Positions 4,801 to 64,000 of a stretch of 64,000 nt of DNA are shown here, in pieces. Positions within the stretch are counted from its first letter, which is position 1. Every line of letters starts with the position of its first letter. A model generated the notes under the pieces. That model saw only the letters and a program-made list of their open reading frames with translations. It was not told the DNA's origin and made no database searches. The stretch spans positions 1,798,001 to 1,862,000 of the forward strand of contig NW_027590120.1 in the NCBI RefSeq assembly GCF_964213995.1, in the 5' to 3' direction. The stretch is from Mustelus asterias. Its lineage: Eukaryota. Both the position numbers and the translations under genes were made by a program.

Positions 4801-5123
4801 CCCTTCAGAATCATTGTCAGCTCCCTGGTTTGCAGCTGCGGGGCTTCTCCCTCCCTCCCTCCCGGGAACAGGCCCAGGTTAACGGCCCCATCCTGGCTCA
4901 GCCACTGGAGGATGGTTCACATCAGAGGATGGGGGAGGGGGACAATAAATAAGAGGTTACACTTTGGCCTCAAATCAATGAGGACTCTGATCTCTGGGAA
5001 GGAAGGAAACCCTGGGAGGTGGGCGGGGAGGATTCACAAACACCCGCTGGAGGCCCCAACATCCCCAATAAGACCCATTGGTTTTATTGTCAGTCTGCAG
5101 ACAGCAGCTGGAGAACTGAATCC

Positions 5124-6003
5124 ACAGTAAGAGTTTTAACAACACCAGGTTAAAGTCCAACAGGTTTATTTGGCAGCAAATGCCATGAGCTTTCGGAGCA
5201 CTGCTCCTTTGTCCGATTGAGTGGATATCTGCTCTCAAACAGGGCATACAGAGACAGAAAATCAAGTTACAGAATACTGATTAGAATGCGAATCTTTACA
5301 GCTAATCAGGTCTTAAAGATACAGACAGTGTGAGTGGAGGGAGCATTAGGCACAGGTTAATGAAATGAGTATTGTCTCCAGACAGGACAGCCAGTGAGAT
5401 TCTGCAAGTCCAGGAGGCAAGCTGTGGGGGTTACCGATAGTGTGACATGAACCCAAGATCCCGGTTTAGGCCGCCCTCATGTGTGCGGAACTTGGCTCTC
5501 AGTTCTGCTCAGCGACTCTGCGCTGTCGTGTGTCGTGAAGGCTGCCTTGGAGAATGCTTACCCGAAGATCAGAGGCTGAATGCCCATGACCGCTGAAGTG
5601 TTCCCCAACAGGAAATGAATGGTCTTGCCTGGTGATTGTCGAGCGGTGTTCATTCAGCCGTTGTCGTAGCGTCTGCATGGTTTTCCCAATGTACTATGCC
5701 TCGGGGCATCCTTTCCTGCAGCGTATCAGGTAGACAATGTTGGCCGAGTTGCAAGAGTAGGTACCGTGTACCAGGTAGATGGTGTTCTCACGTGAGATGA
5801 TGGCATCCGTGTCGATGATCCAGCACGTCTTGCAGAGGTTGCTGTGGCAGGGTTGTGTGGTGTCGTGGTCACTGTTCTCCTGAAGGCTGGTTAGTTTGCT
5901 GCGGACAATGGTCTGTTGGAGGTTGTGCGGTTGTTTGAAGGCGAGAAGTGGGGGTGTGGGGATGGTCTTGACGAGATGTTCGTCTTCATCAATGACATGT
6001 CAT
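5124..6003 (-). mobile_element. Penelope-like element 3' fragment (GIY-YIG endonuclease remnant plus terminal repeat)
   Basis: Minus translation SCNSANIVYLIRCRKGCPEA*YIGKTMQTLRQRLNEHR...VGEHFSGHGH; terminal repeat shared with 20014-20812, 44389-44866, 47014-47740. Confidence 0.85.
5176..5232 (-). ncRNA. Decayed hammerhead ribozyme, family 1 (PLE terminal repeat)
   Basis: CAAU-CGGACAAA-GGAGC.AGU.GCUCC-GAA-AGCU-C-AUGG; core mutated. Confidence 0.6.
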
Positions 6004-6600: not shown

Positions 6601-7824
6601 ATGGAGAAACAGTGGAAATGTGAAGACTGTGGAAAAGTATGTAAAACCCCATCTCAGCTGGAAATTCATCGACGCAGTCACACTGGGGAGAGACCATTCA
6701 GCTGCTGTATGTGTGGTAAAAAATTCGCACAGTCATTTAGCCTGGTGTCACACCAGCGAGTTCACACTGAGGACAGACCTTTTAAATGCTCTGACTGTGG
6801 GAGCAGTTTTAAGAGTTCTGAGGGTTTAATTCAACATCAACGGGTTCACACTGGCGAGAGACCATTCAATTGCTCTCAATGTGGGAAGAACTTCAGGCAA
6901 GTATCTCACCTCACTGAACACCTACGTGTTCACACTGGGGAGAAACCGTTCACCTGCTCCATGTGTGGGAAGGGATTCACTTGTGCTTCCCACCTCACTG
7001 AACACAAGCGTGTTCACACTGGGGAGAGACCATTCAGCTGCTCTCAGTGTGGGAAACATTTCAGGCAGTATTCCACCCTCACTGAACACAAGCGTGTTCA
7101 CACTGGGGAGAGACCATTTCTTTGCTCCTTTTGTGGGAAAGGATTTGTTAAATCATCCCATCTTCTCAGACACCAGCGCATCCACACTGGAGAGAGACCA
7201 TTCACCTGCGCTGAGTGTGGGAAGAGATTCACTACAACATCTCACCTCAGTGAACACCAGAGTCTTCACACTGGGGAGAAACCTTTCACCTGCTGCTTAT
7301 GTGGCAAGGGATTCACATGTTTATCCTACCTCAGAAGAGACAAAATTGTTCACTCCGATGAGAGACCCTGTAAGTGTTCTGACTGTGGGAAGAGGTTTAA
7401 AAGCAGAAATGAACTGATGAAACACCAGCCTCTTCACACAGGGGAGAGACCGTTTGCTTGCTCTGTGTGTGGGAAGGGATTCACTCAGTCATCACAGCTC
7501 AGCAACCATCAGCTTGTTCACACTGATAAGAGACCGTTTAAATGCTCTGACTGTGGAAAGAGCGTTAAAAGTGCAGGGAATCTGCAGAGACACCAAACCA
7601 CCCACACTGAGAGAGGCTGTTCAGCTGCTCTTCATCTGGGAACTGATTCACTACTTCATCCCAAATCACTGAACACCTGCGGGTTCACACTGGTGGGAGG
7701 CCATTCCTCTGATTTGAGTGTGGGAAGGGATTCACTGTCATCCAGCCTGCTAAAGCACCAGTGCACCCCCACTGAGGGAGCATGTTCACCTGCTCCGTGT
7801 GAGACAAGGGATTCAATCAGTTAA
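6601..7824 (+). CDS. C2H2 zinc-finger protein, 12 fingers (finger 9 has H>D), frameshifted tail; decayed fingers continue to ~8505; exon acceptor at 6243|6244
   Basis: CxxC-x12-HxxxH repeats with TGERPF linkers in the ORF translation; no KRAB/SCAN/BTB visible. Confidence 0.88.
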   Translation: MEKQWKCEDCGKVCKTPSQLEIHRRSHTGERPFSCCMCGKKFAQSFSLVSHQRVHTEDRPFKCSDCGSSFKSSEGLIQHQRVHTGERPFNCSQCGKNFRQVSHLTEHLRVHTGEKPFTCSMCGKGFTCASHLTEHKRVHTGERPFSCSQCGKHFRQYSTLTEHKRVHTGERPFLCSFCGKGFVKSSHLLRHQRIHTGERPFTCAECGKRFTTTSHLSEHQSLHTGEKPFTCCLCGKGFTCLSYLRRDKIVHSDERPCKCSDCGKRFKSRNELMKHQPLHTGERPFACSVCGKGFTQSSQLSNHQLVHTDKRPFKCSDCGKSVKSAGNLQRHQTTHTERGCSAALHLGTDSLLHPKSLNTCGFTLVGGHSSDLSVGRDSLSSSLLKHQCTPTEGACSPAPCETRDSIS

Positions 7825-16274: not shown

Positions 16275-16378
16275 AACCAAAAGAGAAAATGCTGGAAAAT
16301 CTCAGCAGGTCTGGCAGCATCTTTAAAGAGAGAAAAGAGCTGACGTTTCAAGTCCAGATGACCCTTTGTCAAAGCTTA
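16275..16378 (-). ncRNA. Repeat arm with family-2 hammerhead motif (16338-16376), U3:A8 core
   Basis: AGCU-UUGACAA-A-GGGUC.AUCUG.GACUU-GAA-ACGU-C-AGCU on minus strand. Confidence 0.7.
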
Positions 16379-19921: not shown

Positions 19922-20013
19922 TTTGGTGGAGGCAGGCACGCTGACATCGTTTAAGACTTACCTGGATTGTCACATGAGCAGCCTGGGAATGGAGGGATAC
20001 AAACGATTGGTCT

Positions 20014-20812
20014 AAAGTCCAACAGGTTTATTTGGTAGCAAAAGACACTAGCTTTCGGAGCGCTGCTCCTTTGTCAGGTGAATGGGATTTCAGTTCACAA
20101 ACAGGGCATATAAAGACAAACTCAATTTACAAAATAATGGTTGGAATGCGAGTCTTTATAGGTAATCCAGTCTTAAAGGTACAGACACTGTGAGTGGAGA
20201 GAGGGTTAAGCACAGGTTAAAGAGATGTGTATTGTCTTCAGCCAGGACAGTTAGTGAGATTTTGCAAGCCCAGGCAAGTCGTGGGGGTTACAGATGGTGT
20301 GACATGAACCCAAGATCCTGGTTGAGGCCGTCCTCATGTGTGCGGAACTTGGCCATCAGTCTCTGCATTCTCCAAGGCGGCCTTCACGACAACGCAGAGT
20401 CGCTGAGCAGAGACTGATAGCCAATTTCCGCGCACGAGGACGGCCTCAACCGGGATCTTGGGTTCATGTCACACTATCTGTAACCCCAACGACTTGCAAA
20501 ATCTCACTAACTGTCCTGGCTGGAGACAATACACATCTCTTTAACCTGTGCTTAACCCTCTCTCCACTCACATTGTCTGTACCTTTAAGACTTGATTACC
20601 TGTAAAGACTCGCATTCTAACCATTATTTTGTAAATTGAGTTTGTATCTTTATATGCCCTGTTTGTGAACAGAACTCCCACTCACCTGAAGAAGGGGCTT
20701 GGGGCTCCGAAAGCTCGTGGCTTTTGCTATCAAATAAACCTGTTGGACTTTAACCTGGTGTTGTGACACTTCTTACTGTGTTTACCCCAATTCAACGCTG
20801 GCATCTCCACAT
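20014..20812. mobile_element. Inverted pair of Penelope-like 3' fragments (minus 20014-20365, plus 20366-20812)
   Basis: Arms are reverse complements; encode ILQGGLHD...AEQRLIA endonuclease end; one hammerhead motif per arm. Confidence 0.85.
20683..20719 (+). ncRNA. Minimal type I hammerhead ribozyme, intact core (family 1); predicted cleavage after C20716
   Basis: CAC-CUGAAGA-A-GGGGC.UUGGG.GCUCC-GAA-AGCU-C-GUG. Confidence 0.75.
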
Positions 20813-22950: not shown

Positions 22951-23424
22951 CGCAAGTGGTTCTGATGTTACAGAAAAATAACTTGGCAATAATAGTCAAT
23001 TACAGCAAATCAGAAACCAGGAATGTTTCTAATCCTTCATTGACGGACATATTCGCTAATTAAATCCTAGCTTTTCACCCTTTCGCATTCGATGAAAAAT
23101 TGACTCCTGCTAATCTTTTATTTGCATAGCATATCCCCATATCTCGCCTTTGGTATTTGTTATGGAGAAATCTGGCCTTGCTCACCCTCTGGTGAAGGCC
23201 GAAAAGCAGAATGTTCTGGGGCCTACGCAGGTGAAGATTAGCCTGTTCATGCTGAAATAGCAGACACTGACTCCTTTGAAGGTCTGCAAGCCGATAAACA
23301 TTTTCACTCGCTGTTAAAGAGAAGGCAGGAAACTTTAATCTGAGCATTTCCACATAGTCAGCCCTGCTTCGTGCATGTGTTAGAGTGGGCCAAGGCTGAG
23401 GCAGCTGTCGTATATATATTTATA

Positions 23425-23605
23425 GAGAGAGAATAGATGAACATTTCGAGTCTGGATGACCCTTTGTCAGAACTCTGATGAAGGGCCATCCAGACTTTAA
23501 ATGTTGGCTCCATTCTCTCTCCACAGATGCTGTCAGACCTGCTGACATTTTCCAGCATTTTCTGTTTTTGTTTCAGATTCCAGCATCCGCAATATTTTGC
23601 TTTTA
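23425..23605. mobile_element. Palindromic non-coding repeat with two decayed head-to-head family-2 hammerheads (other copies 38015-38200, 41865-42030, 42782-42930, 59478-59605)
   Basis: ttcgagtctggatgaccctttgtcag-aact-ctgatgaagggccatccagact; arm acagatgctg.cagacctgctgagattttccagcattttctg. Confidence 0.75.
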
Positions 23606-24620
23606 TATGTATTTATATATCCAAATGTGCTATGTTAACAAAATGGACAGTTACTAACCGAAACATAAAGCATCATGTGATTTAGCTGACTTGACCATAT
23701 TCCTATAGTTATTCAGTCATTAAAGACACAGTCATGGAGCATTAAACTTGCCAAGCAGGGTCCCTTGTATCAGCACACAGGCCGCTGCTTTGTGAGACTG
23801 CGAGCAGAACAGACAAGTCAGAGATAAGAGTGTCTTGAGAAGAGAGATTCATTGTGAAGGATCAGGGACAGTTGATAAGATGTAGGAATTCTATGATTCT
23901 AATGAACATTCTTTCCTCTCTCATTTCCCAAAAGCTGTAAATCTCCATCCCACACACTCTCCCTCCATTCTCACTCTGCTGTATCTAATATTCACCCTCC
24001 CAGTTCTCCTGAAGGTGCTGATTGAGGCTGATTAACAGATCCATGCTCACTGCTTCCTGTCCTGGACACAGAAATCATAAGAAACAGGAGCTGCAGTTGG
24101 CCATTCAGCCCATCGAACTGCCTCAACCATTCATTGAGAATTGGCTGATCTACCACAGCATCATTTCCCACGCTATCCCCCAGATAGAGAGAGAATAGAG
24201 CCAATGTTTCGAGTCTGGAGAGAGGAAAGAATGTTCCATAGAAACTAGAATTGTGTGTTCTGAATTTCTATCCTGCACTGACACTGATGATCTCTGTAAA
24301 CTTGTTTGACAGGATATTGAAAGAGGAATCACAGGCCGAAATCTCAAACGTTGTGTCTAGACCTGACAGAGTCATATTCCTTAGGACCTGAATATCATCG
24401 GCCTTTGAATCGAGGAGAAATGGTTGTCCGGTCTGATGACTTGAAAAGATTTCAAACATCAGTGTGACTGGAAAAGTGCCAACACACTGCCAGACTGGAG
24501 TGAGTGTGTTCCAGTGCACTGAGCTTGAACCAGTTACACAGCCTGAATAAATATCACACCATTCACAGCAGGGGTGTGGACGAGTCTTCAACTGAAGAGA
24601 GAGGCAAGGACACCTGCACC

Positions 24621-25547
24621 ATGGAGAAACCATGGAAATGTGGGGACTGTGGGAAGAGATACAGATACCCATCTGATCTGGAAGCTCATCGGCGCAGCCA
24701 CACTGGGGAGAGGCCATTTACTTGCTCTCACTGTGCGAAGGGATTCAGTCAGTTATCCAGCCTGCGGACACACCAGCGAGTTCACACTGGGGAGAGGCCA
24801 TTCACCTGCTCTCAGTGTGAGAAGGGATTCACTGATTTATCCACCCTGCGGACACACCAGCGAGTTCACACTGGGGAGAGGCCGTTCACCTGCTCTCAGT
24901 GTGGGAAGGGGTTCAGTCGATTATCCAGCCTGCAGAGACACCAACGAGCTCACACTGGGGAGACACCATTCACCTGTTCTCAGTGTGGGAAGGAATTCAC
25001 TCGGTCATCCAGCCTGCAGACACACCAGCGAGTTCACACTGGGGAGAGACCGTTCACCTGCTCTCAGTGTGGGGAGGGATTCACTCGGTCATCCAGCCTG
25101 CGGACACACCAGCGAGTTCATGCTGGGGAGAGGCCATTCACCTGCTCTCAGTGTGAGAAGGGATTCACTGATTTATCCACCCTGCAGAGACACCAGCGAG
25201 TTCACACTGGGGAGAGACCGTTCACCTGCTCTCAGTGTGGGAAGGGATTCACTGATTTATCCACCCTGCGGAGACACCAGCGAGTTCACACTGGGGAGTG
25301 GCCGTTCACCTGCTCTATGTGTGGGAAGGGGTTCAGTCAATTAGCTAAGCTGGAGACCCACCAGCGTGTTCACACTGGGGAGAGACCATTCACCTGCTCT
25401 CAGTGTGAGAAGGGATTCACTAGTTTATTCACCCTGCGGAGTCACCAGCGAGTTCACACTGGGGAGAGGCCGTTCACCTGCTCTCAGTGTGGGAAGGGAT
25501 TCAGACTTTCATCCCAGCTGCTGAGACACCAACAAGTTCACAAGTGA
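24621..25547 (+). CDS. C2H2 zinc-finger protein, 11 intact fingers, 308 aa from ATG 24621; acceptor 24312|24313
   Basis: Uninterrupted 11 x 28-aa array, MEKPWKC...HQQVHK*. Confidence 0.9.
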
Positions 25548-27915: not shown

Positions 27916-29224
27916 CAGCTCCCCTGTTGTTATATGGGACAGATTAGATATATTATTTATAGCTCTGTAATAAAATACACTTATTATATCTGGCTGTGTA
28001 ATTTTGGACTGCAGCTATATTATATATTTCCAACAATCTCTTCCCTCAGAGAATTGTTAGTATCTAGATTTCTCTTCCATAGGGACCAGTGGAGGGATTG
28101 AATATATTCAAGGATGAGTTGGACAGTTTGTGAATGACAAGGGAGTCAATAATTATTGGGAACGGGCTGGAAAATGGAGAGAAAGCTCAGATGAGGAAGG
28201 ATTTCATCACTGAAGGATGTGGTGATGTTTTGGATTCTCTACCCCAGAGGACGATAGAGCCTCAGTCATCAAGAATTTTCAAGAGAGGGATTGATAGGTT
28301 TCTAGATATTGAAGATATCGATGGATATGGGGGACAGTGTGGGGAAAATAATGCAGAGGTAGATCAACCAATAATCTCAATGAATGGTTGAGCAGACTCG
28401 ATGGGCCGAATGCTGACTGCAGCTCCTATTTGTTCTGATTTCTGTGCTGGACAGGAAGCAGTGAGCATGGATCTGTCAATCAGCCTCAATCAGCACCTTC
28501 AGGAGAATTGGGAGGGTGAATATTAGATGCAGCAGAGTGAGAATGGAGGGAGAGTGTGTGGGATGGAGATTCACAGCTTTTGGGGAATGAGAGGGGAAAG
28601 AATGTTCATTAGAATCATAGAATTGCTGCATCTTATCAACCGTCCCTGAGCTTTCACAATGAATCCCACTTCTGAGGACACCCTTATCTCTGACTTGTCT
28701 GTACTGCTGGCAGTCTCACAAAGCAGCTGCCTGTGTGCTGATACGGGAGGCCCTGCTGGGCAGGTTTAATGCTCCATGACTGTGTCTTTAATGAATGCTC
28801 CATAGAAACTAGAAATGTAGATTTGAATTTCGATCGTATTCTGAATTGCGATGTTTTTTCTAAATTGACTTACAGGATATTAGACAAGGAGAAATCAGAC
28901 AGAAATCTCCAACATCACATCGAGATCTGACAGAGTGACTCGATTTCTTGGGACCTGAAATCATCGGCCTTTGAATCGAGCAGGAGAAATGTTTGTTTGG
29001 CCTCTTGGCTTCAAAAGATTGTAAACATCGCTGTGACTAGAAATGCACTGAGATACACACACCCGAGTGAGAGTGTTCCAGTGCACTGAGTGTGGAAAGA
29101 GCTTTAACCAGTTACACAGCCTGAAAATACATCGCAGCATTCACAGTGGGGAGAGACTGTACCCGTGTTCTGTGTGAGATTTAACTGATTGTTTAACCTG
29201 GAGAGTCACAAGGACACCCGCACC

Positions 29225-30505
29225 ATGGAGAAACCGTGGAAATGTGGGAAGGGATTCAGGTTCCCATCTGAGCTGGAAATTCATCAACACAGTCACACTG
29301 GGGAGAGACCATTCACCTGCTCTGTGTGTGGGAAGGGATTCACTGACTTACCTAATCTGCAGAGACACCAACGAGTTCACACTCGGGAGAGGCCATTCAC
29401 CTGCTCTGTGTGTGGGAAGGGATTCACTCAGTTATCCAGCCTGCAGAAACACAATCTCTCTCACACCAATGAGAGACCCTTTAAATGCTCTGACTGTGGG
29501 AGTGGTTTCAAAAGCTCTCGGGAACTGATGATCCACCAGCGCATTCACACCGAGGAGAGACCGTTCAGCTGCTCTCACTGCACAAAGACATTTAGAACAT
29601 CATCCCACCTGCGGGAGCACCAACGAGTTCACACCGGGGAGAGACTGTTCACCTGCTCGGTGTGTGGGAAGGGATTCACTCATTCATCAAACCTGTGCAG
29701 ACACAATCTCACTCACAGCAATGAGAGACCCTTTAAATGCTCTGACTGTGGGAGCGGATTCAAAAGCTCTCATGGACTGATGTCCCACCAGCGCATTCAC
29801 ACTGAGGACAGACCGTTCAGCTGCTCTCACTGCACAAAGAGATTTAGAACTTCATCCGAACTGCGGAGACACCAGCGAGTTCACACCGCGGAGAGGCCGT
29901 TCCCCTGCTCTGTGTGTGGGAAGGGATTCAGTCAGTCATCCAGCCTGCAGAAACACAAAGCCACTCACTCCAATGAGAGACCATTTAAATGCTCTGACTG
30001 TGGGAATGGATTCAAAAGCTCTCAGGATCTGATGTCCCACCAGCGCATTCACACTGAGGAGAGACCGTTCAGCTGCTCTCACTGCACAAAGAGGTTTAGA
30101 ACATCATACAGCCTGCTGAAACACCATCGAGTTCACACCGGGGAGAGACCATTCACCTGCTCGGTGTGTGGGAAGGGATTCACTACTTCATCCCACCTGC
30201 GCAGACACAAAGTCACTCACACTAATGAGAGACCGTTTAAATGCTCTGACTGTGGGAGCGAATTCAAAAGCTCTCAGGATCTGGTGTCCCACCAGCGCAT
30301 TCACACTGAGGAGAGACCGTTCAGCTGCTCTCACTGCTCAAAGAGGTTTAAAAGGTCATCCAGCCTGAGGGAACATCAGCGAGTTCACACTGGGGAGAGA
30401 CCATTCACCTGCTCTGTGTGTGGGAAGGGATTCACTACTTCATCCATCCTGCTGAGACACAAAGCCACTCACTCCAAGGAGAGACCCTTTAAATGCTGTG
30501 CCTGA
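29225..30505 (+). CDS. C2H2 zinc-finger protein, 15 fingers (first lacks one Cys via 9-nt deletion), 426 aa; decayed fingers to ~30885; acceptor 28875|28876
   Basis: ORF 29189-30505; periodic CSVC/CSDC/CSHC fingers. Confidence 0.9.
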   Translation: MEKPWKCGKGFRFPSELEIHQHSHTGERPFTCSVCGKGFTDLPNLQRHQRVHTRERPFTCSVCGKGFTQLSSLQKHNLSHTNERPFKCSDCGSGFKSSRELMIHQRIHTEERPFSCSHCTKTFRTSSHLREHQRVHTGERLFTCSVCGKGFTHSSNLCRHNLTHSNERPFKCSDCGSGFKSSHGLMSHQRIHTEDRPFSCSHCTKRFRTSSELRRHQRVHTAERPFPCSVCGKGFSQSSSLQKHKATHSNERPFKCSDCGNGFKSSQDLMSHQRIHTEERPFSCSHCTKRFRTSYSLLKHHRVHTGERPFTCSVCGKGFTTSSHLRRHKVTHTNERPFKCSDCGSEFKSSQDLVSHQRIHTEERPFSCSHCSKRFKRSSSLREHQRVHTGERPFTCSVCGKGFTTSSILLRHKATHSKERPFKCCA

Positions 30506-34010: not shown

Positions 34011-36683
34011 TACAGAGGAGCTGAAGAGAAACCATTTGTGTCCAGAACATTGTGAACATCCTTTACTCTGGTTGTCTTTGATCCTCAAGTCATTTTCTGT
34101 TTGTTTTAACCATGTTCTGTTTCATTAATAAACTTTTATCAGTAAAAATATTTGATTTTTCTGGACATTTCCTGATGAGATTGATGCACTTTAGGGAAAG
34201 TGGGTGGGAGGGGTTGGCAGGCTCTTTAACAGAAAGTGAGTCCCTCTAAGGTAATTGGCAAAGGAACCAGAGGGGGAGATGGGATTTTATTTTTGACTCA
34301 GCGATGTCAGAAAATGGAGTTCAGGGAGTCAATTAACCCTTTCTCCCCTTTTCCCAAACTCTGAAATGATTCCCAGTGATAACCCTTATTGGTGACAGTG
34401 GTTAGATTTTATTCAGTATCAATAAGAGCCGACACAGGCTAATGTCTGAGCAGTCGTATCAAAGTGCAGCAGCATTACCATTACACTCTGGGAAGAAGCA
34501 GCATCTCCACGGAAATGCTCCCTGCTCTGCCCCAGATGCCATGGCACCAGTCAATGCAATATGTAAAACCTCGACAAATCTCTGTGCTCGGGGAATCCCT
34601 TCTTATACTTTTTTACATCACAAAGTCTATGGAGACTGATTTAACCCAATCATTGCTCAGCTAACACGTGAACGGATCAATTACAAAACCTGTCATTGAA
34701 CCATCTGTACCTGCCCAAGCCATGTCAAACTCTCAAACAATTGTCTTCCCACGCTCCGTCCCTGGTACAGGGAGTCAGCATTCCCATGCCAAGCAGTGAA
34801 AACATGGTGTTCGTGACACCCAGGTGTCATCCAGGATTCAAGGCACTCCTGTTTTCTCTGTCCTCTGGGAGCTGTTTATCTCCCTGTTCCCACACAGCAA
34901 GTCGTCTGTTCTCAGCTCTGCTGGATTTCTGCTGAAGTTTGACCCCTTTTACACCTTTCGGATCAATAAAACATTTGGTTAATGAAGATCCAAACCACAA
35001 TTTCCCATCCTGTCACCTGTCAACCATCCTTACCCAGAGCGTAATCACAACAGGAATAAAAACAGGAGAAGTGTCACAATCAAATTCAAAATCAATGCAC
35101 AGCCAGTCATAGAATTTAATTTAATATTCACTAATTAGCAAGAAAACCCAAAGTAGGGGGTCCCCCAGGATTCTTACAGTCCACACCTTGAGGGGGGAGA
35201 ACTCTCTCTCTGACCCCTCACTCAATTTCAATCCGTTATTGTCCAGTTCTGGCCCCGCCTGGGGTAACATCTACTTGATCTTTCCTACTCCTGAAGGAGC
35301 ACCGTGAGTTCTAGGTTACTTGTACATAAGGACAGATGCTTCAAGCAACAGATCAAGCATGGATGTAAAAGATTCTCCAGCTCTCTCTTTACCCCTATCT
35401 AAGTTGTGGACAGTTCTTACTGTGTTATTTCCCCCAAGCCCTTAATTGTCCCAATCTATAATATTATCCATTTTATTTTAATTTTCCTCACTGTGTGAGC
35501 ATGTGCAGTGTGTTTAATTGGATCCTGATTGTTTTGAACTCAGTTTCTCTGGAGTGTGTGTCAGTGCCTTGATGATGTCACAATGTTGTCTCAATCCCCT
35601 GGCCACATGAACCATTTCATCTCCTGCTGTGTCTCAAGTAGCTGTGTGTGTTTGGGACCCGCTCTTCACTCCATCTCACCATGGATTTAGGCTTGCTATT
35701 TTTCACATGTAACACATCACATCTGCACACTCACTCCGGTATCCCAAAATCATGTCACACATTCTTAACTTTCAGATGTGCTGATGAAAAGATCAAAGTG
35801 AGTGTCTGTCTTTCTTATCTCCCCCTGTTATGGTGCTGATATTTCATGTAGTGGCCGGGCTTTCAAACAAAGTTCATGGACAAAGTTGTAAATATCTCCC
35901 AGAGAAAGTGATCAACTTATTCATCCCATCCCATTCCAGACTTTCACTAGACTGTAGGTGGATACCAGATTGATATATTCCATTCAACCACTCGCAAGGT
36001 GAGTTATTCCAATTTCTTTATTGTCCAGGACAATATATTCACAATATCTTTAAAACAGAAATTAAACATTCCCATTTGATTTCAGGTATTAACACATTCT
36101 GTTAGTTTGTTCTTTATTGTCGATGTCAGGCTGGGGTTGTTCTCCTTGGAGCAAAGGAGGTTGAGGGGAGATTTGATAGAGGTGGACAAGCTTCTGACAG
36201 GTTTAGATAAGGTGGACAAAGAAAAGCTGTTCCCATTAGTTGATGAGACAAGGACGAGGGGGACACAGATTTAAGGTTCTGGATCAGAGGCGTGGAGGGG
36301 AGGGGGGGCGGATGTGAGGAAGAATATTTTGAAGCAGTGAATGGTAATGACCTGGAACTCGCTGCCTATGAGGGAGGAGGAAGTGGAGACAACAAACAAT
36401 TACAAAGGAAATTGGACGGGCATTGGGGGGTTTCAAACAGAAATGCTGACTAAATATCTCTGACCTTCCTCACATCCTGTCACTCTGTGATCCTTGTGAA
36501 ATTTGAAACCAGGTATTCGCAACAAGACTGAAAGAGCATCAGCCCACTGGAGGCTGAGACCGGCCAGTCCAGCAGAAAGAAACCCTCTGACCCTCCCCAT
36601 TGACCAACTGTGAGAATGAACAAAATGCAGTCCTGGATGCAACTGAGAGCAGAAACAAGAACAGCAGAATCCAACCCCTGGAA

Positions 36684-37526
36684 TCACTCGTGAACTTGCT
36701 GGTGTCTCAGCAGGTGGGATGAAACTCTGAATCCCTTCCCACACTGAGAGCAGGTGAATGGTTTCTCCCCAGTGTGAACTCGCTGGTGTGCCCGCAGGTC
36801 GGATGATTGAGTGAATCCCTTCCCACACTGGGAGCAGGTGAACGGCCTCTCCCCAGTGTGAATTCGCTGGTGTGTCTGCAGGCTGGATAACTGAGTGAAT
36901 CCCTTCCCACACTGGGAGCAGGTGAATGGCCTCTCCCCAGTGTGAACTCGCTGGTGTGTCTGCAGGGTGGATAACTGAGTGAATCCCTTCCCACACTGAG
37001 AGCAGGTGAACGGTCTCTCCCCAGTGTGAACTCGCTGGTGTGTCTGCAGGTTAGATGAACAAGTGAATCCCTTCCCACACTGAGAGCAGGTGAACGGCCT
37101 CTCTCCAATGTGAACTCGCTGGTGTCTCTGCAGGCTGGATAACTGAATGAATCCCTTCCCACACTGAGAGCAGGTGAATGGCCTCTCCTCAGTGTGAACT
37201 CGCTGGTGTGTCTGCAGGTGGGATGACTGAGTGAATCCCTTCCCACATTGAGAGCAGGTGAATGGCCTCTCCTCAGTGTGAACTCGCTGGTGTGTCTGCA
37301 GGTGGGATGACTGAGTGAATCCCTTCCCACATTGAGAGCAGGTGAATGGCCTCTCCCCTGTGTGAACTCGCTGGTGTGTCTGCAGGCTGGATAACTGAAT
37401 GAATCCCTTCTCACACTGAGAGCAGATGAACGGCCTCTCCCCAGTGTGGCTGCGCCAATGAGCTTCCAGCTGTGATGGGGCTCTGTATCCCTTCCCACAG
37501 TCCACACATTTCCATGGTTTCTCCAT
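36684..37526 (-). CDS. C2H2 zinc-finger protein, 10 intact fingers, 280 aa from ATG 37526; acceptor at 37877; inverted paralog of the 24621 gene
   Basis: Uninterrupted 10 x 28-aa array. Confidence 0.9.
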
Positions 37527-38199
37527 GGTGCAGGTGTCCTTACCTCTCTCTTGGGTGGACAATTAGTTGAAACTTCGTCCACACACAGAACAAGATTACA
37601 GTCTCTACCCGCTGTGAATGGTGTGATATTTATTCAGACTGTGTAATTGGTTTAAGCTCTTTAGTCAGTGCAATGGAACACTCTCACTCGAGTGTGGCAG
37701 TGTGTCGATGCTTTTTCACTCACACTGACATTTCAAATCTTTTCAAATTGACAGACTGGACAATCATTTCTCCTTCTGGATTCAAAGTCTGATGATATTG
37801 AGGTCCCAAGGAATATGATTCTGTCGCGTCTAGACGTGACGTTTGAGATTTCAGCCTGTGATTCCTCTTTCAATATCCTGTAAAATGAGTTTACAAAAGT
37901 CATCAGTGTCAGTACAGGATAGAAATTCAGAACAGACAATTTCTATGGAACATTCTTTCCTCTCTCATTCCCCAAAAGCTGGAAATCTCCATCCCACACA
38001 CTCTCTCCCCATTCTCAGCAGGTCTGGCAGCATCTGTATGGAGAGAAAAGAACTGATGTTTCAGAGCTTTGACAAAGGGTCGTCTAGACAAGAAACATCA
38101 GCTCTTTTCTCTCCTTACAGATGCTGCCAGACCTGCTGACATTTTCCAGCATTTTCTCTCTTGGTTTCAGATTCCAGCATCCGCAGTAATTTGCTTTTA

Positions 38200-39259: not shown

Positions 39260-39728
39260 CGTCTGTCGCCATTCCCCGCACTGCGCATGCTTCAGGTCCC
39301 GCCCCTCATTCACTCCCATTGGTTGGAGGACCAGCCGCTCCTGCTCGGTCCTCCAGCCCCGCCCCCTCTTTCTATTGGTCCGGAGCTGCCGTCAATCAGT
39401 CCCCGGGCATTGTGATGTGGAGCATGCGCAGTGTCATTGCTGTCCTTGGCGCTTGTTTGTCCCGGAGAAGCGGAGTCAGCGTTAGGCGGTGGCTGGGAGG
39501 ATTTGGAAACACTTTGTGGATCCGCAAACCCTTCAGAATCATTGTCAGCTCCCTGGTTTGCAGCTGCGGGGCTTCTCCCTCCCTCCCTCCCGGGAACAGG
39601 CCCAGGTTAACGGCCCCATCCTGGCTCAGCCACTGGAGGATGGTTCACATCAGAGGATGGGGGAGGGGGACAATAAATAAGAGGTTACACTTTGACCTCA
39701 AATCAATGAGGACTCCGATCTCTGGGAA
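39260..39728. promoter_or_regulatory. Bidirectional-type CpG promoter, near-identical to 4550-5000; likely drives minus-strand ZNF at 37877
   Basis: NRF1 half-sites at both ends, ATTGG x2, GC boxes, palindrome 39324-39355. Confidence 0.75.
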
Positions 39729-40526
39729 GAACATAGAACAGTATAGCACAGAACAGGCCCTTCGGCCCACGATGTTGTGCCGAGCTTTATCTGAAACCAA
39801 GATCAAGCTATCCCACTCCCTATCATCCTGGTGTGCTCCATGTGCCTATCCAATAACCGCTTAAATGTTTCTAAAGTGTCTGACTCCACTATCACTGCAG
39901 GCAGTCCATTCCACACCCCAACCACTCTCTGCGTAAAGAACCTACCTCTGATATCCGTCCTGTATCTCCCACCACGAACCCTATAGTTATGCCCCCTTGT
40001 AATAGCTCCATCCACCCGAGGAAATAGTCTTTGAACGTTCACTCTATCTATCCCCTTCATCATTTTATACACCTCTATTAAGTCTCCCCTCAGCCTCCTC
40101 CGCTCCAGAGAGAACAGCCCTAGCTCCCTCAACCTTTCCTCATATGACCTACCCTCCAAACCAGGCAGCATCCTGGTAAATCTCCTCTGCACTCTTTCCA
40201 GCGCTTCCACATCCTTCTTATAGTGAGGTGACCAGAACTGCACACAATATTCCAAATGTGGTCTCACCAAGGTCCTGTACAGTTGCAGCATAACCCCACG
40301 GCTCTTAAACTCCAACCCCCTGTTAATAAAAGCTAACACACTATAGGCCTTCTTCACAGCTCTATCCACTTGACTGGTAACCTTTAGAGATCTGTGGATA
40401 TGGACCCCAAGATCTCTCTGTTCCTCCACAGTCTTCAGAACCCTACCTTTGACCCTGTAATCCACATTTAAATTTGTCCTACCAAAATGAATCACCTCAC
40501 ATTTATCAGGGTTAAACTCCATTTGC
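39729..40526 (-). mobile_element. Young 5'-truncated CR1/HER1 LINE, open frame
   Basis: ORF 39803-40522 uninterrupted RT C-terminus; tail ctgttctatgttc. Confidence 0.95.
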
Positions 40527-41429
40527 CCTGGGAGGTGGGCGGGGAGGATTCACAATCACCCGCTGGAGGCCCCAACACCCCCAGTAAAAAGCTGCAGCTC
40601 CCTGCAGTGACCGGGAAAGAAAATAATTGATTTTATTTTCACTCTGTACAAAAGAGAACTGAACCCAGCCAGAATAGAGGGTGGGAGAAAAGATTTGTGA
40701 AGATATTTCACACTGGGTTTGCCAGGCTGACCAACTCTCTCTGAGAAAATGAAAGGACATCCTTCATGAGTCTGTCGGAGCAGGTGAGCAGTATTGTGTG
40801 CGGTGCTGCTGGAACTGCGAGGGTGGGCACGGGCTGGTTGGCAGCCAGAACAGCTGGAAGAGGGTGCTGCACACATCCATCTTATGGGTGAAACAGCGCC
40901 CATACGCCATGCAGCCTGGCACACTGGAGTCATGGGACAATCCATTGAAATATGAGCTGGTTGGTCAGTGTGGGAGTTGGTTGCAGGACAGGGAGGAGGG
41001 AAAGTGTTCAGGATGAGGATTTACTGCTGCACAGGAACAAGTGAGGAAACGATGTTCCACAGAACATAGTTTCAAATTCCAGCATCCGCAGTAATTTGCT
41101 TTGATTCCAAATAAACTTATTGGACTTTAACCTGGTGTTCTGAGACTTCTTACTGTGCAAACTCCACAGAGACAGTCACCCACCGCTGGAATCGAACCCA
41201 GACTCAATGAGGCAGCAGTGCGAACCACTGTGTCACAGTGAAGGGAGTTTGCCGCAAATTTCGGGTGATAACAATGGGCTGGATGTTGCTCAGAATGTGG
41301 AGCACTGCAGCAAAGTACAGAGAGACAGAGACAGAGCAGCAAACTGGACTGAGAAATGGAGTCTGCAGACTGGAACTGGCAGCATGAGGAGAGGTTATTT
41401 AGTCTAACACTCACAGCAATCTACAACCC

Positions 41430-42775
41430 ACCCCCATTACCGAGACAGTGAGACAGAGATTACAAACACTCACCAACACAGCTCCACTGAAACGTCCCAG
41501 GAAAAAGAGGGAATCTGTGGCGGTTCCTGTCCTGAAATAGCCCCAGGACTGTCACTCAAACCCCCAACCCGGCCCAGTTCACAGCTCAGCCTCTCAGCTT
41601 GCAGCTTCCTGCACCTTGAGCCAACCCTGTCCAGGTGTGGGAGGGATGTGGAACCACAGAGTGGGGGGAGGGGTGACCTCCTGCTGTGCCCCAAATAGTT
41701 TCTCCTTCCCCTCCCCCATGACGCTCTAAGGTCTGAATGTGGATGTGTTGATGGACATTGCAGAGCCTCACGGAGCTGCGCCTGTCCCTTATCCTGGGTC
41801 ACCCCCTCCCCCTGGGTCCAGTGTGTTCAGTTCGCTGCTTCTTTCCCTGCTGAACCTTCAGTTAATCAAAAACAGAAAGTGCTGGAAAACCTCAGCAGGT
41901 CTGATCGCATCTGTGATCATCCAGACTGGAAACATTAACTCCATTCTCTCTCCACAGATGCTGTCAGACCTGCTGAGATTTTCCAGCATTTTCTGTTTCA
42001 GATTCCAACACCCGCAGTATTTTGCTTTTATCTTCATTTAAAGAAGCATTCTGTGAAGGCCTTTACCCCCATTGCTCCTTTCCAGAGCTTCCCACCTTCT
42101 GCTATTGTCCCTGACTCCCACAGTAACTGTCATTCCTTCCCTTTATCCCGCTCACATCCCGCTCGAAACTCAGGCTCAGAGTTTTACCGCCATCTCCCCC
42201 TCCCCCAGCTCCCACATCCCAACACCCGGAATCTCTAACCCAGCGGTTCCAGTTTGTCTGGTTTGAGTTCAGATTTGCCGCAGCACCGACAGGATTTCAC
42301 TTCAAACCAGCCGGAACTGACTGCTCACAAATCCCAAAACGTTTCTCCAGCAGCCCGGGCTTGTTCACGTTGTTTAAAGTCAGCGCCCAAATGCAGTTAC
42401 TCTCCTCAGTTTAAAAAACTTCTCCGTTTAATCCAAAGTATTATTCGCACCAGACATAAACACAAAATTGTGAACGTTACCCACCGCCCCCCTCTCCTCT
42501 CCCCCGCCCCCCCCAACCAGACCCGAGCTGGGGTGTCCTGAGTAAGAGACATCTGTTTCGGGTGTGACAATTCTTACACATTCTCTGGTTGACATCAAAC
42601 GGAAAACGCTGGAAATTGCCCCCATTACCGAGATAGTGAGACAGAGATTACAAACACTCACCAACACAGCTCCAGTGAAATGTCCCAGGGAAAAGGGGGA
42701 ATCTGTGGCTGTTCCTGTCCTGATATCGCCCCAGGACTGTCACTCAAAACCTCAACGCCGCCCAGTTCACAGCAA
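41430..42775. repeat. ~155-bp direct duplication (41430-41585 and 42619-42774) containing a minus-strand donor TTG|GTGAGT
   Basis: cccccattaccgaga.agtgagacagagattacaaacactcaccaacacagctcca in both. Confidence 0.8.
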
Positions 42776-42971
42776 ATTGCTGCTTTTGTCAAAAGGGTCA
42801 CTTGGACTCGAAACCTCAGCTCTTTTTGTCTCCTTACAGATGCTGCCAGACCTGCTGAGATTTTCCAGCGTTTTCTCTTTTGGCTGGAAATACTCAACAA
42901 GTCAGGCAGCCTCTGTGGAGAGAGAAACAGACTGAATGTGACCTGTCATCGGAACTGGGAAATATAATATT

Positions 42972-44333: not shown

Positions 44334-44371
44334 GTCTTTGACAAAGGGTCATCTGGACTCGAAACGTCAGC
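44334..44371 (+). ncRNA. Family-2 hammerhead motif with U3:A8 core; predicted GUC cleavage after 44368
   Basis: GUCU-UUGACAA-A-GGGUC.AUCUG.GACUC-GAA-ACGU-C-AGC; stem I weakened. Confidence 0.7.
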
Positions 44372-44388
44372 ACTTTTCTCTCCTGACA

Positions 44389-44866
44389 AATGCCCGTGAC
44401 CACTGAAGTGCGTCATGGGCATTCAGCCTCTGATCTTTGGGTAAACATTCTCCAAGGCGGCCTTCAGGACACACGACAGCGCAGAGTCGCTGAGCAGAAA
44501 CTGATAGCCAAGTTCCGCACACATGAGGACGGCCTAAACCGGGATGTTGGCTTGATGTCACACTATCAGTAATCCCCACAGCTTGCCTCCTGGACTTGCT
44601 GGTTGTCCTGTCTGGAGACAATACGAATCTCTTTAACCTGTGCTTAATGCTCCCTCCACTCACATTGTCTGTATCTTTAAGAACTGGTTGGCTGTAGAGA
44701 TTTGCATTCTAATCAGTATTCTGTAACTTGATTTTGTGTCTCTGTGCACTGTTTGAGAGCAGATTTCCACTCCATCTGACGAAGGAGCAACGCTCCAAAA
44801 GCTAATGGTATTTGCTATCAAATAAACCTGTTGGACTTTAACCTGGTGTTGTTAAAACTGTTACTC
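44389..44866 (+). mobile_element. Penelope-like 3' fragment with short inverted 5' end; hammerhead 44772-44808 carries G12A
   Basis: ORF 44390 HGHSASDLWVNILQGGLQDTRQRRVAEQKLIAKFRTHEDGLNRD. Confidence 0.85.
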
Positions 44867-47013: not shown

Positions 47014-47740
47014 GCTGCGACAACGGATCATAGAAATCATAGAAACCCTACAGTGCAGAAGGAGGCCATTCGGCCCATCGAGTCTGCACCGACCACAATC
47101 CCACCCAGGCCCTACCCCCACATATTTACCCACTAATCCCTCTAACCTACGCATCTCAGGACTCTAAGGGGCAATTTTTAACCTGGCCAATCAACCTAAC
47201 CCGCACGTCTTTGGACTTTGGATGAATGAACACCGCTCGACCATCATCAGGAAAGACTGTTCTCTTCCTGTGGGGGAGCACTTCAGCAGTCACGGGCATT
47301 CAGCCTTGGATCTTCAGGTAAGCATTCTCCAAGGCGGCCTACACGACAGCGCAGAGTCGCTGAGCAGAAACTGATAACCAAGTTCCGCACACATGAGGAC
47401 GGCCTAAACCGGGATGTTGGATTTATGTCACATTATCAGTAACCCCCACAGCTTGCCCCCTGGACTTGCAGAATCTTACTAGCTGTTCTGTCTGGAGACA
47501 ATACACATCTCTTTAACCTGTGTTTAATGCTCCCTCCACCCACATTGTCTGTACCTTTAAGACCTGGCTGGTTGTAGGGATTCGCATTCTAATTAGTATT
47601 CTGTAACTTGATTTGTGTCTCTGTGCACTGTTTGAGAGCACATTTCCACTCCATCTGACGAAGGAGCAGCGCTCCGAAAGCTTATGGTATTTGCTACCAA
47701 ATAAACTTGTTGGACTTTAACCTGGTGTTGTGAGACTCAC
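47014..47740 (+). mobile_element. Penelope-like 3' fragment interrupted by minus HE1 3' half (47028-47219)
   Basis: ctgcgacaacggat|SINE|ggatgaatgaacaccgc rejoins to LRQRMNEHR. Confidence 0.85.
47651..47687 (+). ncRNA. Minimal type I hammerhead ribozyme, intact core (family 1); predicted cleavage after U47683
   Basis: CCAU-CUGACGA-A-GGAGC.AGC.GCUCC-GAA-AGCU-U-AUGG. Confidence 0.78.
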
Positions 47741-48185
47741 TGGAGCCCCAGGCCATTCTTGCCATCCTGCCAGGTCTCGGGTACTGAGGCCAGTAGTAAA
47801 GTTTATTAATGCGTCACAAGAAGGTTTACATTCGCACTGTAAGTAAGTTACTGTGAAAATCCCCGAGTCGCCACACTCCGGCACCTGTTCGGGTACACTG
47901 AGGGAGAATTCAGCATGGCCAATGCACCTAACCATTATGGTATTTGCTACCAAATAAACCTGTTGGACTTTAACCTGGTGTTGTGAGACCTCTTACCGTG
48001 TTCACCCCAGTCCAACGCTGGCATCGCCACATCATCCCCTCCTGTCCACCAGAGGTCGCTGTAGGCCTCCCAGCTGCTGCTCCTCCCAGTGTCACCTCTT
48101 GCCCACTCCAGCCCCTCCAGTACACCTCACTGGAGCCCCAGGCCATTCTTGCCATCCTGCCAGGTCTCGGGTACTGAGGCCAGTA

Positions 48186-48467
48186 GTAAAGTTTATTAAT
48201 GCGTCACAAGAAGGTTTACATTCGCACTGTAAGTAAGTTACTGTGAAAATCCCCGAGTCGCCACACTCCGGCACCTGTTCAGGTACACTGAGGGAGAATT
48301 CAGCTTGGTCAATGCACCTAACCAGCACATCTTTTGGACTGTGGGAGGAAACCGGAGCACCTGGAGGAAATCCACAGACACGTGGAAAATGTGCAAACTC
48401 CACACAGTGACCCAAGCCGGGAATCAATTCCAAATCCCTGGCGCTAACCACTGTGCCACTGTACCAC
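48186..48467 (-). mobile_element. V-SINE alternative-tail copy (partial duplicate at 47797-47934)
   Basis: Same sequence family as 14181-14470. Confidence 0.8.
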
Positions 48468-49881: not shown

Positions 49882-51087
49882 TCACTGGTGAACTCGCTGG
49901 TGTCTCACCAGGTTGTGTGACTGGGTGAATCCCTTTCCACACATTGAACAAGTGAACGGCTTCTCCTCACTATGAACTTGTTGGTGTCTCAGCAGAATGG
50001 ATGACCGGGTGAATCCTTTCCCACACTCAGTGCAGGTGAACGGTCTCTCCTCAGAGTGATTTCGCTGGTGTGCGAGCAGAAGTTTTCTGCTTTTAAAGCT
50101 CTTCTCACAGTCAGAACATTTGAACGGTCTCTCATTTGTGTGAACAAGTTGGTGTGAAGTGAGAGAGGATAAACAAGTGAATCCCTTCCCACACACAGGG
50201 CAGGTGAACGGCCTCTCCCCAGTGTGAGTTCGCTGGTGTACAGTGAGGTCGCCTGATCGCCTGAAGCCAGTCCCGCAGTGAGAACACATGAATGGTCTCT
50301 CGTCAGAGTGAACACGTTGATGGTGACGCAGTTCCTCAGAACTTTTATAGCCCTTCCCGCAGTCTGGACATTTAAACAGTCTCTCTTCACTGTGAACTCG
50401 TTGGTGTTTCTGCAGGTTGAATGATCGGTTAAACCCCTTCCCACATTCAGAGCAGGTGAATGGCCTCTCTCCAGTGTGAATGCGCTCATGTGCCACAAGG
50501 TGGAATGATGTCCTGAACCCCTTCTGGCAGTGGGAGCAGCTGAACGGTGTGGAACCGGTGTGAATGTACTGGTGCTCCCGGAGTGTGCGTGGAGTTTTAA
50601 AACTCTTTCCACACTCAGTGCATTTAAACTCTCTCCTGTCGGTGTGAACTGGCTGGTGTCTCTGCAGGGCAGAGAAATCTGTGAATCCCTTCCCACACTC
50701 AGAGCAGGTGAATGGCCTCTCCCCTGTGTGAATGTGCTGATGTATCAGCAGGGCCGATGACTGAGTAAATCCTTTTCCACATTCGGAGCAGGTGAACTGC
50801 CTCTCCCTGCTGTGAATGCGCTGGTGAATCAACAGGCCAGCTGTCTGAGTGAATCCCTTCCCACACACAGGGCAGGTAAAAGGTCTCTCTCCAGTGTGAG
50901 TGCGTTGGTGATTTTGCAGGTCAACTGGATAATTGAATCCTTTCCCACAGTCTCCACATTTATACGGTCTCTCCCTGGTGTGACTGCGCTTGTGTCTCGA
51001 CAGGCCAGATGATCGATTGAAGCCTTGTCCACATACAGAACACGTGTACAGTGTCTCCTCTCTGTGAACGGTGCTTTTTTCTTCCAT
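49882..51087 (-). CDS. C2H2 zinc-finger protein, 14 intact fingers (401 aa from ATG 51087; frame open back to acceptor 51193, possibly 470 aa with exon 54994-54894)
   Basis: ORF 49882-51345; ttttcag acceptor; MEEKSTVH start homologous to 15159 and 17773. Confidence 0.9.
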
Positions 51088-51814
51088 GTTCAAAGGCTGA
51101 TGATGTTTAGATCCTGATGAATCAAAGCTCCCTGTCTGATCTTGATGTGATCCTTGATTTACAATTTTCTGTAATTCCTCACCTTCTAATCCGCTGAAAA
51201 ATGAATTGAAAACAGAAAGAGGGAACCATGAGAGACAAGCCATAAATATACAAAGACAAAATGTGAAATTGAGTTGAACTAATCTGGTAAATTGTGGGAT
51301 TCGGACTAGGACATAGTGGATATGAAAGCTGCTGGATTGTGACAAAGCCTCAAACTGTTTACCAATGCACTGAGGGAAAGGAACGCTCCACCTCTTCAGA
51401 GCCTACAACAAGAATCCAGCCTTTATGCGTGAAGAGGGAGAGGTCGGGAGGAGGGTGACGGAGAGAGACTTTATACATCAGCAACTCAACCAGGATTTTG
51501 GCAGAATCTCCTCAACCCACAATCTTCCCCACCTGGAAGTACCAGAGCAACTGGGACATGGGAAAACCACACAACTTCCTGACTTGGACAAATATCACTG
51601 TCCCTTCAACGTGACTGGGTTAAAATTCTAATGCTCTTGCATTGTGGGAGCACCTTTACTATATGGACTGCAGAGGTTCAAGAAGAAGAAGGCCAACTAT
51701 CACCATCACAAAGGATAATTGGTGATTGGTAACGTATCGCTGTCTGTGATAGTAATTCAGGACAAATACCTGGGCCTTTTTTGTTCTTTTGCAAATCTGT
51801 ATGAAACCTGCAAG

Positions 51815-58689: not shown

Positions 58690-61719
<3,030 letters not shown>

Positions 61720-62550: not shown

Positions 62551-64000
62551 GACCCTGAGCCCGGACCCGTCGCCACGTCCTGAGCCCGGGCCCGTCGCCG
62601 TGCCCTGAACCCGGGCCTGTCACCGCACCCTGAACCCAGGCCCTGAACCCAGGCCCATCACCGCGCCCTGAACCCAAGCCTGTCGCCGCGCCCTGAACCC
62701 AAGCCTGTCGCCGCGCCCTGAACCCGGGCCTGTCACTGCGCCCTGAACCCAGGCCCCGAACCCGGGCCCATCACCGCGCCCTGAACCTGAGCCTGTTGCC
62801 GCGCCCTGAACCCAGGCCTGTCACCGCGCCCTGAACCCGGGCCCATCACCGCGCCCTGAACCCAAGCCTGTCGCCGCGCCCTGAACCCAAGCCTGTCGCC
62901 GCGCCCTGAACCCGGGCCTGTCACTGCGCCCTGAACCCAGGCCCCGAACCCGGGCCCATCACCGCGCCCTGAACCTGAGCCTGTTGCCGCGCCCTGAACC
63001 CAGGCCTGTCACCGCGCCCTGAACCCGAGCCTGTCACCGTGCCCCGAACCCGGGCCTGTCGCCGCGCCCTGAACCCGGGCCTGTCGCCGCGCCCTGAACC
63101 CGGGCCCATCACCGCGCCCTGAACCCGGGCCTGTCACCGCGCCCTGAACCCGGGCCTGTCACCGCGCCCTGAACCCGAGCCTGTCACCGTGCCCTGAACC
63201 CGGGCCTGTCGCCGCGCCCTGAACCCGGGCCCATCACCGCACCCTGAACCCGGGCCTGTCACCGCGCCCTGAACCCGGGCCTGTCACCGCGCCCTGAACC
63301 CGGGCCCATCACCGCGCCCTGAACCCGGGCCCATCACCGCGCCCTGAACCCGGGCCTGTCACCGCGCCCTGAACCCGGGCCTGTCACCGCGCCCTGAACC
63401 CGGGCCTGTCACCGCGCCCTGAACCCGGGCCCATCACCGCGCCCTGAACCCGGGCCCATCACCGCGCCCTGAACCCGGGCCTGTCACCGCGCCCTGAACC
63501 CGGGCCCGTCACCGCGCCCTGAACCCGGGCTGTCACCGCGCCCTGAACCTGAGCCTGTCGCCGCGCCCTGAACCTGAGCCTGTCGCCGCGCCCTGAACCC
63601 GGGCTGTCACCGCGCCCTGAACCTGAGCCTGTCGCCGCGCCCTGAACCCGGGCCCCGAACCTGGGCCCATCACCGTGCCCTGAACCCGAGCCTGTCGCCG
63701 CGCCCTGAACCCGAGCCTGTCGCCGCGCCCTGAACCCGAGCCTGTCGCCACGTCCTGAACCCGAGCCTGTCGCCCTGCCCTGAACCCGAGCCTGTCGCCG
63801 CGCCCTGAACCCGAGCCTGTCGCCCTGCCCTGAACCCGAGCCTGTCGCCGCACCCTGAACCCGAGCCTGTCGCCGCGCCCTGAACCCGAGCCTGTCGCCG
63901 CGCCCTGAACCCGGGCCTGTCGCCGCGTCCTGAACCCGGGCCTGTCGCCGTGCCCTGAACCCGGGCTCGTCGCCGCGCCCTGAACCCGAGCCTGTCGCCG
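62551..64000. repeat. GC-rich 25-bp tandem array, runs off the window
   Basis: ccctgaacccg(g/a)gcctgtc(a/g)ccgcg with period 25; local 188-bp higher-order duplication near 62640-63020. Confidence 0.97.

Follow-up and report, generated by a model that had tools for sequence, protein, structure and literature searches.

The stretch of Mustelus asterias DNA analysed here (64,000 nucleotides, referred to as the window) encompasses a cluster of C2H2 zinc-finger genes that is rich in LINE and SINE remnants (Table 1). A GC-rich segment that may be a promoter or a first exon is found twice in the window (4553-5001 and 39281-39729, 97% match), and a GC-rich tandem repeat at 62553-64000 runs out of the window end, with a GC fraction of 0.68 in the last 2 kb. 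Using blastn with the repeat around the hammerhead motif at 47651, we collected from the 64-kb window five long copies, designated A to E in Table 1, and three short 3' fragments.

Table 1. Hammerhead motifs, element remnants and zinc-finger ORFs, with positions counted from the first nucleotide of the window.
Feature	Positions	Strand	Description
PLE remnant A	47220..47737	+	3' end of GIY-YIG ORF (stop 47440-47442) and 3' repeat; 5'-truncated
Hammerhead, copy A	47651..47687	+	type I minimal, core complete; C3 47655, G8 47660, G12 47676, H17=U 47683; stem I CCAU/AUGG, stem II GGAGC/GCUCC, loop AGC, AGCU palindrome, extra A 3' of A9
Distal helix arms, copy A	47637-47643 with 47689-47695	+	7x1 internal loop; C.U mismatch at 47641
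AAUAAA, copy A	47700..47705	+	17 nt 3' of copy A cut site; seen in 5/5 copies
PLE remnant B	20365..20812	+	with tail; direct half of inverted-pair insertion
Hammerhead, copy B	20682..20720	+	core complete; N7=A; H17=C at 20716; stem I 4 bp UCAC/GUGG, stem II GGGGC/GCUCC (G.U wobble), loop UUGGG
PLE remnant C	44412..44865	+	short 5' inversion at 44389-44411
Hammerhead, copy C	44772-44808	+	G12A at 44797 (CpG to CpA); H17=A
PLE remnant D	20013..20366	-	inverted half of the insertion of B, without tail
Hammerhead, copy D	20080-20046	-	G8A at 20072 (CpG to CpA); H17=A
PLE remnant E	5122..5999	-	longest; CX4CxxC linker, GIY-YIG core
Hammerhead, copy E	5219-5183	-	U4G plus G8A; H17=C; one stem I mismatch
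Fragment F	47935..48032	+	3' part of repeat plus ~33-nt tail
Fragment G	41100..41157	+	repeat 3' of hammerhead only, fused to family-2 element tail
Marginal 3' fragment	35403-35426		blastn match of repeat
Family-2 copy	16376-16338	-	
Family-2 copy	59604-59566	-	
Family-2 copy	about 44336	+	
Family-2 copy	38067	+	
Family-2 copy	42792	+	
Family-2 copy	23473	+	
Family-2 copy	23470	-	
Family-2 copy	41917	+	
C2H2 zinc-finger ORFs	6526-7824, 24504-25547, 29189-30505, 36684-37562, 49882-51402, 60913-61641	both	

The parent Penelope-like element and its insertions

All of the hammerhead copies sit 3' of the end of an RT/GIY-YIG ORF, that is, in the pseudo-LTR (pLTR) of a Penelope-like element (PLE). 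In remnant A, which is inserted into a SINE-like repeat, C3 of the hammerhead lies 213 nt beyond the ORF stop. Remnant E retains a GIY-YIG core with two Cys residues before YIG and His residues downstream, in keeping with the CCHH motif of Neptune-clade elements, interrupted by a stop codon and a frameshift; its Pfam GIY-YIG match (E 0.0033, 18.1 bits) is under the 22.6 cut-off. The first 100 residues of this remnant matched 26 of 33 candidate proteins. The top six matches of the endonuclease are M. asterias proteins (84-92% identity), followed by proteins of Heptranchias, Scyliorhinus and Chiloscyllium (68-79% identity), and RVT_1 is present in four of the five relatives that were scanned. 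The initial annotation had assigned hammerheads to the terminal repeats of PLEs, an assignment borne out by this ORF context, by the RVT_1-bearing relatives and by the consensus given in PMC4209133.

A CX2-5CxxC linker is described as marking the Neptune and Nematis clades and as missing from Penelope/Poseidon (PMC8557442). The linker of remnant E, taken together with the GIY-YIG core and the RVT_1-bearing relatives, points to a Neptune-type parent; the clade is called from the linker motif, which is shared with Nematis, as there is no RT in the window. Like the shark remnants, the Neptune EN+ PLEs of PMC8557442 have a GIY-YIG domain with two core Cys residues and the linker upstream of it, although for this comparison the shark window holds 3' remnants only. 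The Anolis Poseidon element PAc (PMC11167929) likewise has a pLTR hammerhead and two 3'-end classes but, unlike the shark element, no linker finger, and its ORF starts inside stem II; the ORF start of the shark family could not be located. Shark gene models, P0026 and P0001 among them, carry PLE sequence as coding exons and are probably annotation artefacts; in a shark septin 5a isoform, the first ~230 residues are PLE endonuclease plus translated pLTR.

The five copies are four insertions, old and 5'-truncated, rather than five, because 20046(-) and 20683(+) are inverted halves of one. Remnants D and B abut at 20365-20366 in head-to-head orientation, overlapping by 2 nt, and the two diverge by 6.5% versus 16.3-18.1% from the remaining copies. 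An inverted 5'-truncated copy with a 30-40 bp tail at a single end is a published PLE pattern, and the Neptune EN+ PLEs (PMC8557442) share with the shark remnants the 5' truncation, the inverted 5' copy and the one-ended tail. Inspected by eye, the insertion that contains B and D showed no target-site duplication. The 3' ends fall into two classes ~33 nt apart, with C, E and G in one and B and F in the other, which we liken to the pair of sites at which reverse transcription starts in the anole PLE, where two 3'-end classes define the tail (PMC11167929).

Tail-only insertions starting at the hammerhead cut site were considered for the short fragments and rejected. Fragment F restarts at U16.1, 2 nt before the copy A cut site, but is best read as a local duplication holding the tail of A (47736-47934 is duplicated at 48126-48324, with 3 differences in 199), and for fragment G, microhomology with the family-2 tail makes the start uncertain.

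Hammerhead motifs and their subfamilies

Motifs were found at all five locations proposed in the initial annotation, and in copy A the letters are CCAU CUGACGA A GGAGC AGC GCUCC GAA AGCU U AUGG. The core (CUGANGA, GAAA and UH, where H is not G) is complete in two of the five copies, A and B, and mutated in the others as had been described, with one lesion in C (G12A), one in D (G8A) and two in E (U4G plus G8A); the cut sites claimed at 47683 and 20716 coincide with the H17 positions. The topology is type I, with a helix I of 4 bp and a helix II of 5 bp, and the RNAalifold consensus agrees. One additional nucleotide lying between position 9 and position 10.1, and a G10.1-C11.1 pair, are present in 5/5 copies, as is an AGCU palindrome across 15.1-16.1, with helix III absent, so the palindrome and the extra A past A9 listed earlier are both upheld. 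Stem II, said to keep GGAGC/GCUCC pairing, does stay paired throughout, but in copy B it is GGGGC/GCUCC with a G.U wobble. The distal helix that had been proposed as an extension of stem I is perfect in C and E only; it is mismatched in the headline copy A (C.U) and in B and D (both A.C). The AAUAAA that follows the hammerhead is a possible poly(A) signal.

By all features tested, the motif belongs to the already published class of PLE minimal hammerheads (min-HHRs). The metazoan PLE min-HHRs described in PMC4209133 share with it the extra nucleotide after position 9, the G10.1-C11.1 pair, the palindrome at 15-16 and the short helix I. Among the motifs listed in PMC4209133 (Fig. S3), the closest is that of Chrysemys picta bellii (the GAAA column is displaced in the PDF text of that figure), with stems GCAU/AUGC and GUGGG/CCCAC and, as in the shark copies, the palindrome, a downstream AAUAAA and a similar 5' flank. 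The shark copies have a possible distal helix of 5-7 bp beyond the 7x1 loop, whereas loop 1 of S. mansoni is poorly defined according to PMC4209133. Two other identities were rejected. The canonical Schistosoma-type hammerhead has a helix I of 6 bp, a helix II of 4 bp and docking loops, whereas the shark motif has 4+5 bp and no Rfam match. Non-LTR retrozymes (PMC7229834; preprint 10.64898/2026.07.22.740005) are PLE-related and carry type I hammerheads like the shark motif, but they are described as tandem non-coding units of 150-450 nt with a hammerhead in each, and the shark copies are dispersed singles plus one inverted pair, all with ORF remnants. Type I hammerhead retrozymes are reported in one chondrichthyan genome (preprint 10.64898/2026.07.22.740005). 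No sharks were found among the Fig. S3 rows of PMC4209133 or in a search of its supplement, and a literature search found no description of the shark family, although published supplements may already name shark motifs. With this finding, sharks join the hosts of a motif that was described in 2014 as occurring in the repeats of PLEs across animals, as a specialist would expect.

Several search results would agree with a chance likeness to a hammerhead within a repeat. The core letters alone gave 8 matches in the window versus 6.84 expected, so that the core pattern by itself is uninformative; scans with the Rfam hammerhead models, covering the full window as well as 141-nt pieces surrounding copies A and B, gave no match at E<=10; and the 71-nt regions around these two copies fold no better than shuffles (z -0.56 for A, +0.68 for B). 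A descriptor that combines the core with stems I and II, however, has two perfect matches, A and B, whereas 150 dinucleotide shuffles average 0.013 matches and 0/150 reach two, and the motif lies at the site where PLE hammerheads are expected, with features outside the descriptor also in agreement. The descriptor enrichment and the agreement with the published turtle motif refute the chance explanation in practice, and we assign it next to no probability. A covariance model built from the five copies recovered, by construction, just those five (E<1e-17), the next match having an E value of 0.69.

Copies A, C and E differ from B and D at 28 diagnostic columns of 366, with a divergence of 6.5-11.8% within the two groups and 16.3-18.1% between them. 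The two subfamilies proposed initially are thus recovered, but in the window the second is one insertion (B and D), joined by P0026 and P0027 when their amino acids are read out. P0026, a Scyliorhinus torazame gene model, translates the repeat and reads HSPEEGAVLQKLVT, with S-P...L-V-T where copy A gives P-S...L-M-V; these residues would imply UCAC/GUGA and N7=A. P0027 crosses first an antisense and then a sense B-type copy, apparently with an ordinary 3-nt loop II, again as read from amino acids. Judged by these two read-outs, the two sequence subfamilies are real and the loop UUGGG is private to copy B rather than a subfamily trait. A comparison of P0026 residues 178-231 with shorter proteins gave 0 matches for further shark copies, an antisense-frame alignment search gave 1 match among 6350 candidates, and a representative protein library gave three matches, of which P0027 was used and two are weak (E 2e-4 and 6e-4).

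Two of the 16 proposed pairs are doubly changed between the subfamilies: in stem I, U2.1-A1.1 is replaced by C-G, and the innermost pair of the distal helix goes from U-A to A-U; among the other pairs, one C-G has become U.G and one distal pair is broken. Each doubly changed pair is a single event among the five copies in the window. The switch in stem I that had been called compensatory is so, but it comprises one pair and one event, with a chance estimated at 0.14-0.21. The chance of both double changes is 0.005-0.012, the distal helix having been chosen after seeing the data. Zero of the 28 diagnostic changes fall in the 28 columns of the core and stem II (chance 0.10). Loop II varies, as the initial annotation had pointed out, but mostly through private change or CpG decay, such as that of AGC(G) to AGU, and with no sign of selection. 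A search by eye for a tertiary contact between loop II and the bulge found room for no more than 2-3 bp and no covariation, and we do not claim such a contact.

A second hammerhead family

The window also contains eight aligned copies of another min-hammerhead (family 2, as opposed to family 1 described above), with stem II GGGUC/GACUC and an ACGU palindrome. It resembles the Neptune motif of Acropora digitifera in Fig. S3 of PMC4209133, and its anatomy suggests a PLE origin, with no ORF attached. U3/A8 goes with H17=C in four copies and C3/G8 with H17=U in two; of the remaining copies, both unpaired at 3-8, one has C3/A8 and the other is degenerate; the same core swap between U3-A8 and C3-G8 is reported for Schistosoma in PMC4209133. 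The inverted twins at 23473 and 23470 read CUGAUGA and CUGACAA, two decay products of CUGACGA. Short inverted pairs of the family-2 repeat (23418-23528, 38013-38140, 41864-42004 and 42792-42935) explain the sub-threshold miRNA-like Rfam matches in the window. Most of the direct copies start 4-8 nt upstream of position 3, and the copy at 16376 shows a target-site duplication some 15 bp long. A pyrimidine tract, CAG and ATG follow just 3' of the hammerhead (16330-16305 on the minus strand and the equivalent segments of family 2), an arrangement that looks like a putative 3' splice site before a start codon.

The family-1 pieces C and G lie directly behind family-2 pieces of the same orientation (44336-44412 and 41069-41157), twice in 64 kb; either PLEs insert beside PLEs, or a template switch took place at a shared short motif. 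The abundant shark copies, with natural swaps between subfamilies, inverted twins and the U3-A8 core of family 2, would be material for testing computationally whether the catalytic core is under selection and how the cut site mutates.

Decay, folding and possible activity

Lesions are present at 4/55 core sites, and private changes at 52/1320 flanking sites (Fisher p 0.28, with little power at five copies). At the background rate, the chance that a copy keeps all 11 core bases is ~0.64, so intact copies are expected by chance. Three of the four core lesions, namely both G8A changes and the G12A, turn CpG into CpA, in a window that is depleted in CpG (observed/expected 0.40). Within the limits of n=5, the inserted copies decay neutrally, with no sign of selection on any of them, and since most of the lesions are of the CpG type and the core mutates at the background rate, function would lie with the source elements and not with these copies. 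The functional ribozyme family claimed in the initial annotation is therefore plausible for source elements but unsupported for the copies in the window. Position 17 is U, A or C and not G, as was also claimed, but the chance of never finding G is 0.75^5=0.24, which is no evidence of selection.

The isolated 37-mer of copy A folds stems I and II as its minimum free energy structure (-10.7 kcal/mol, ensemble frequency 0.51, z -1.99). In a context of about 180-220 nt, the pairing probability of stem I is 0.05 for A, 0.01 for C and 0.00 for B, and the hammerhead fold is predicted to be a minor conformer there. Subfamily-specific hairpins at 47684-47698 and 20710-20725 compete for the 3' strand of stem I and could act as a folding switch. 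Cleavage by a monomer was rejected on anatomy (stem III of 1 bp, loop of 2 nt): only A15.1-U16.1 can pair around a GC dinucleotide, hence there is no stem III and the monomer should be inactive. A designed double hammerhead reached -18.1 kcal/mol, versus -28.7 for an inactive dimer with swapped stem II, and was not better than two monomers. These energies are unfavourable to an active dimer and fit the reports of low activity and protein dependence, in which published min-HHRs cleave poorly even as dimers (PMC4209133), 8/9 Xenopus retrozyme dimers are without cleavage (preprint 10.64898/2026.07.22.740005), and cleavage by the anole PLE hammerhead depends on protein (PMC11167929).

With a probability of about 0.8, we read the motif at 47651 as the min-HHR of the 3' pseudo-LTR of a Neptune-type PLE, a ribozyme that acts as a dimer in the source element and whose inserted copies are decaying. 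In the source-element RNA, two copies, either in tandem or on two RNAs bound to the element's protein, would base-pair through the AGCU palindrome of each and exchange the strands of stem I, a dimer that we infer from PMC4209133. Each core, composed of CUGANGA, stem II and GAAA, would cut the partner copy after H17, with G12 as the general base and the 2'-OH of G8 as the acid (PMC6155905). Cleavage would probably be weak and, by analogy with the anole PLE (PMC11167929), assisted by the protein of the element; it would most likely trim a tandem or read-through precursor RNA. Selection during past rounds of retrotransposition would have left the compensatory changes between the subfamilies, and the copy at 47651 would be without host function. 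Copies C and A are on the same strand, 2,879 nt apart; if they are co-transcribed, the core of A could cut C after 44804, but the site of A itself would need the mutated G12 of C.

Alternatively, the element may retain the motif for its structure, as a module descended from a hammerhead that serves RNA dimerisation or binds protein and hardly cleaves in vivo. This would account for the normal insertion in vitro of anole hammerhead mutants, which makes the hammerhead dispensable for that step, and for the lack of RNA-seq reads ending at the anole cut site, both reported in PMC11167929. Naiad PLEs are described as thriving without canonical hammerheads, PMC7761336 calls the in vivo role 'still a mystery', and in the window copies the active fold is only a minor conformer. 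A module of this kind is nevertheless hard to square with the conservation of G12, G8 and a non-G H17 across the subfamilies and from shark to turtle, with the joint replacement of C3-G8 by U3-A8 in family 2, a pair that matters for catalysis (PMC11167929), or with the cleavage seen for the anole hammerhead when protein is present (PMC11167929), and we hold it to be unlikely, if still worth keeping in mind. Far less probable is a reading in which the intact copies at 47651 and 20683 are ribozymes, active or domesticated, at work in the processing of host transcripts from the zinc-finger cluster. Two of the five copies do retain the full core, C and A could pair in one transcript, and B shares its strand with the flanking zinc-finger ORFs, but such intactness is what the background rate predicts for each copy, A would be left without a working-core partner by the G12 mutation of C if the dimer geometry holds, the nearest zinc-finger ORF (49882-51402) is on the minus strand and thus antisense to A, and the fold of B is outcompeted in context.

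The behaviour of position 17 deserves separate consideration. It is U, A and C within the A/C/E subfamily and also differs between B and D, and is the sole column with both properties, three-state columns numbering 4/346 and columns that differ between B and D 22/339. The twins B and D differ at 7/37 hammerhead columns plus a 2-nt indel, versus 15/302 columns outside, an excess that is about four times denser in the hammerhead (Fisher p 0.005, post hoc); the changes of B itself fall on free positions or preserve pairing. The variability at position 17 and between the twins is most plainly explained by a source whose two repeats differ slightly, together with positions that are free to vary. 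It is conceivable, although we consider it doubtful, that one insertion was copied from two RNAs joined via the hammerhead dimer and that the RT mis-read across a junction cleaved and re-ligated at position 17; with n=5 there is one twin pair, several of its differences are in CpGs, and position 17 is constant in each family-2 group (C in 4 copies, U in 3). If it were true, PLE hammerheads that cleaved and ligated in vivo would have left in shark genomes a fossil record that can be counted, and this would bear on the puzzle of hypervariability that PMC4209133 raises.
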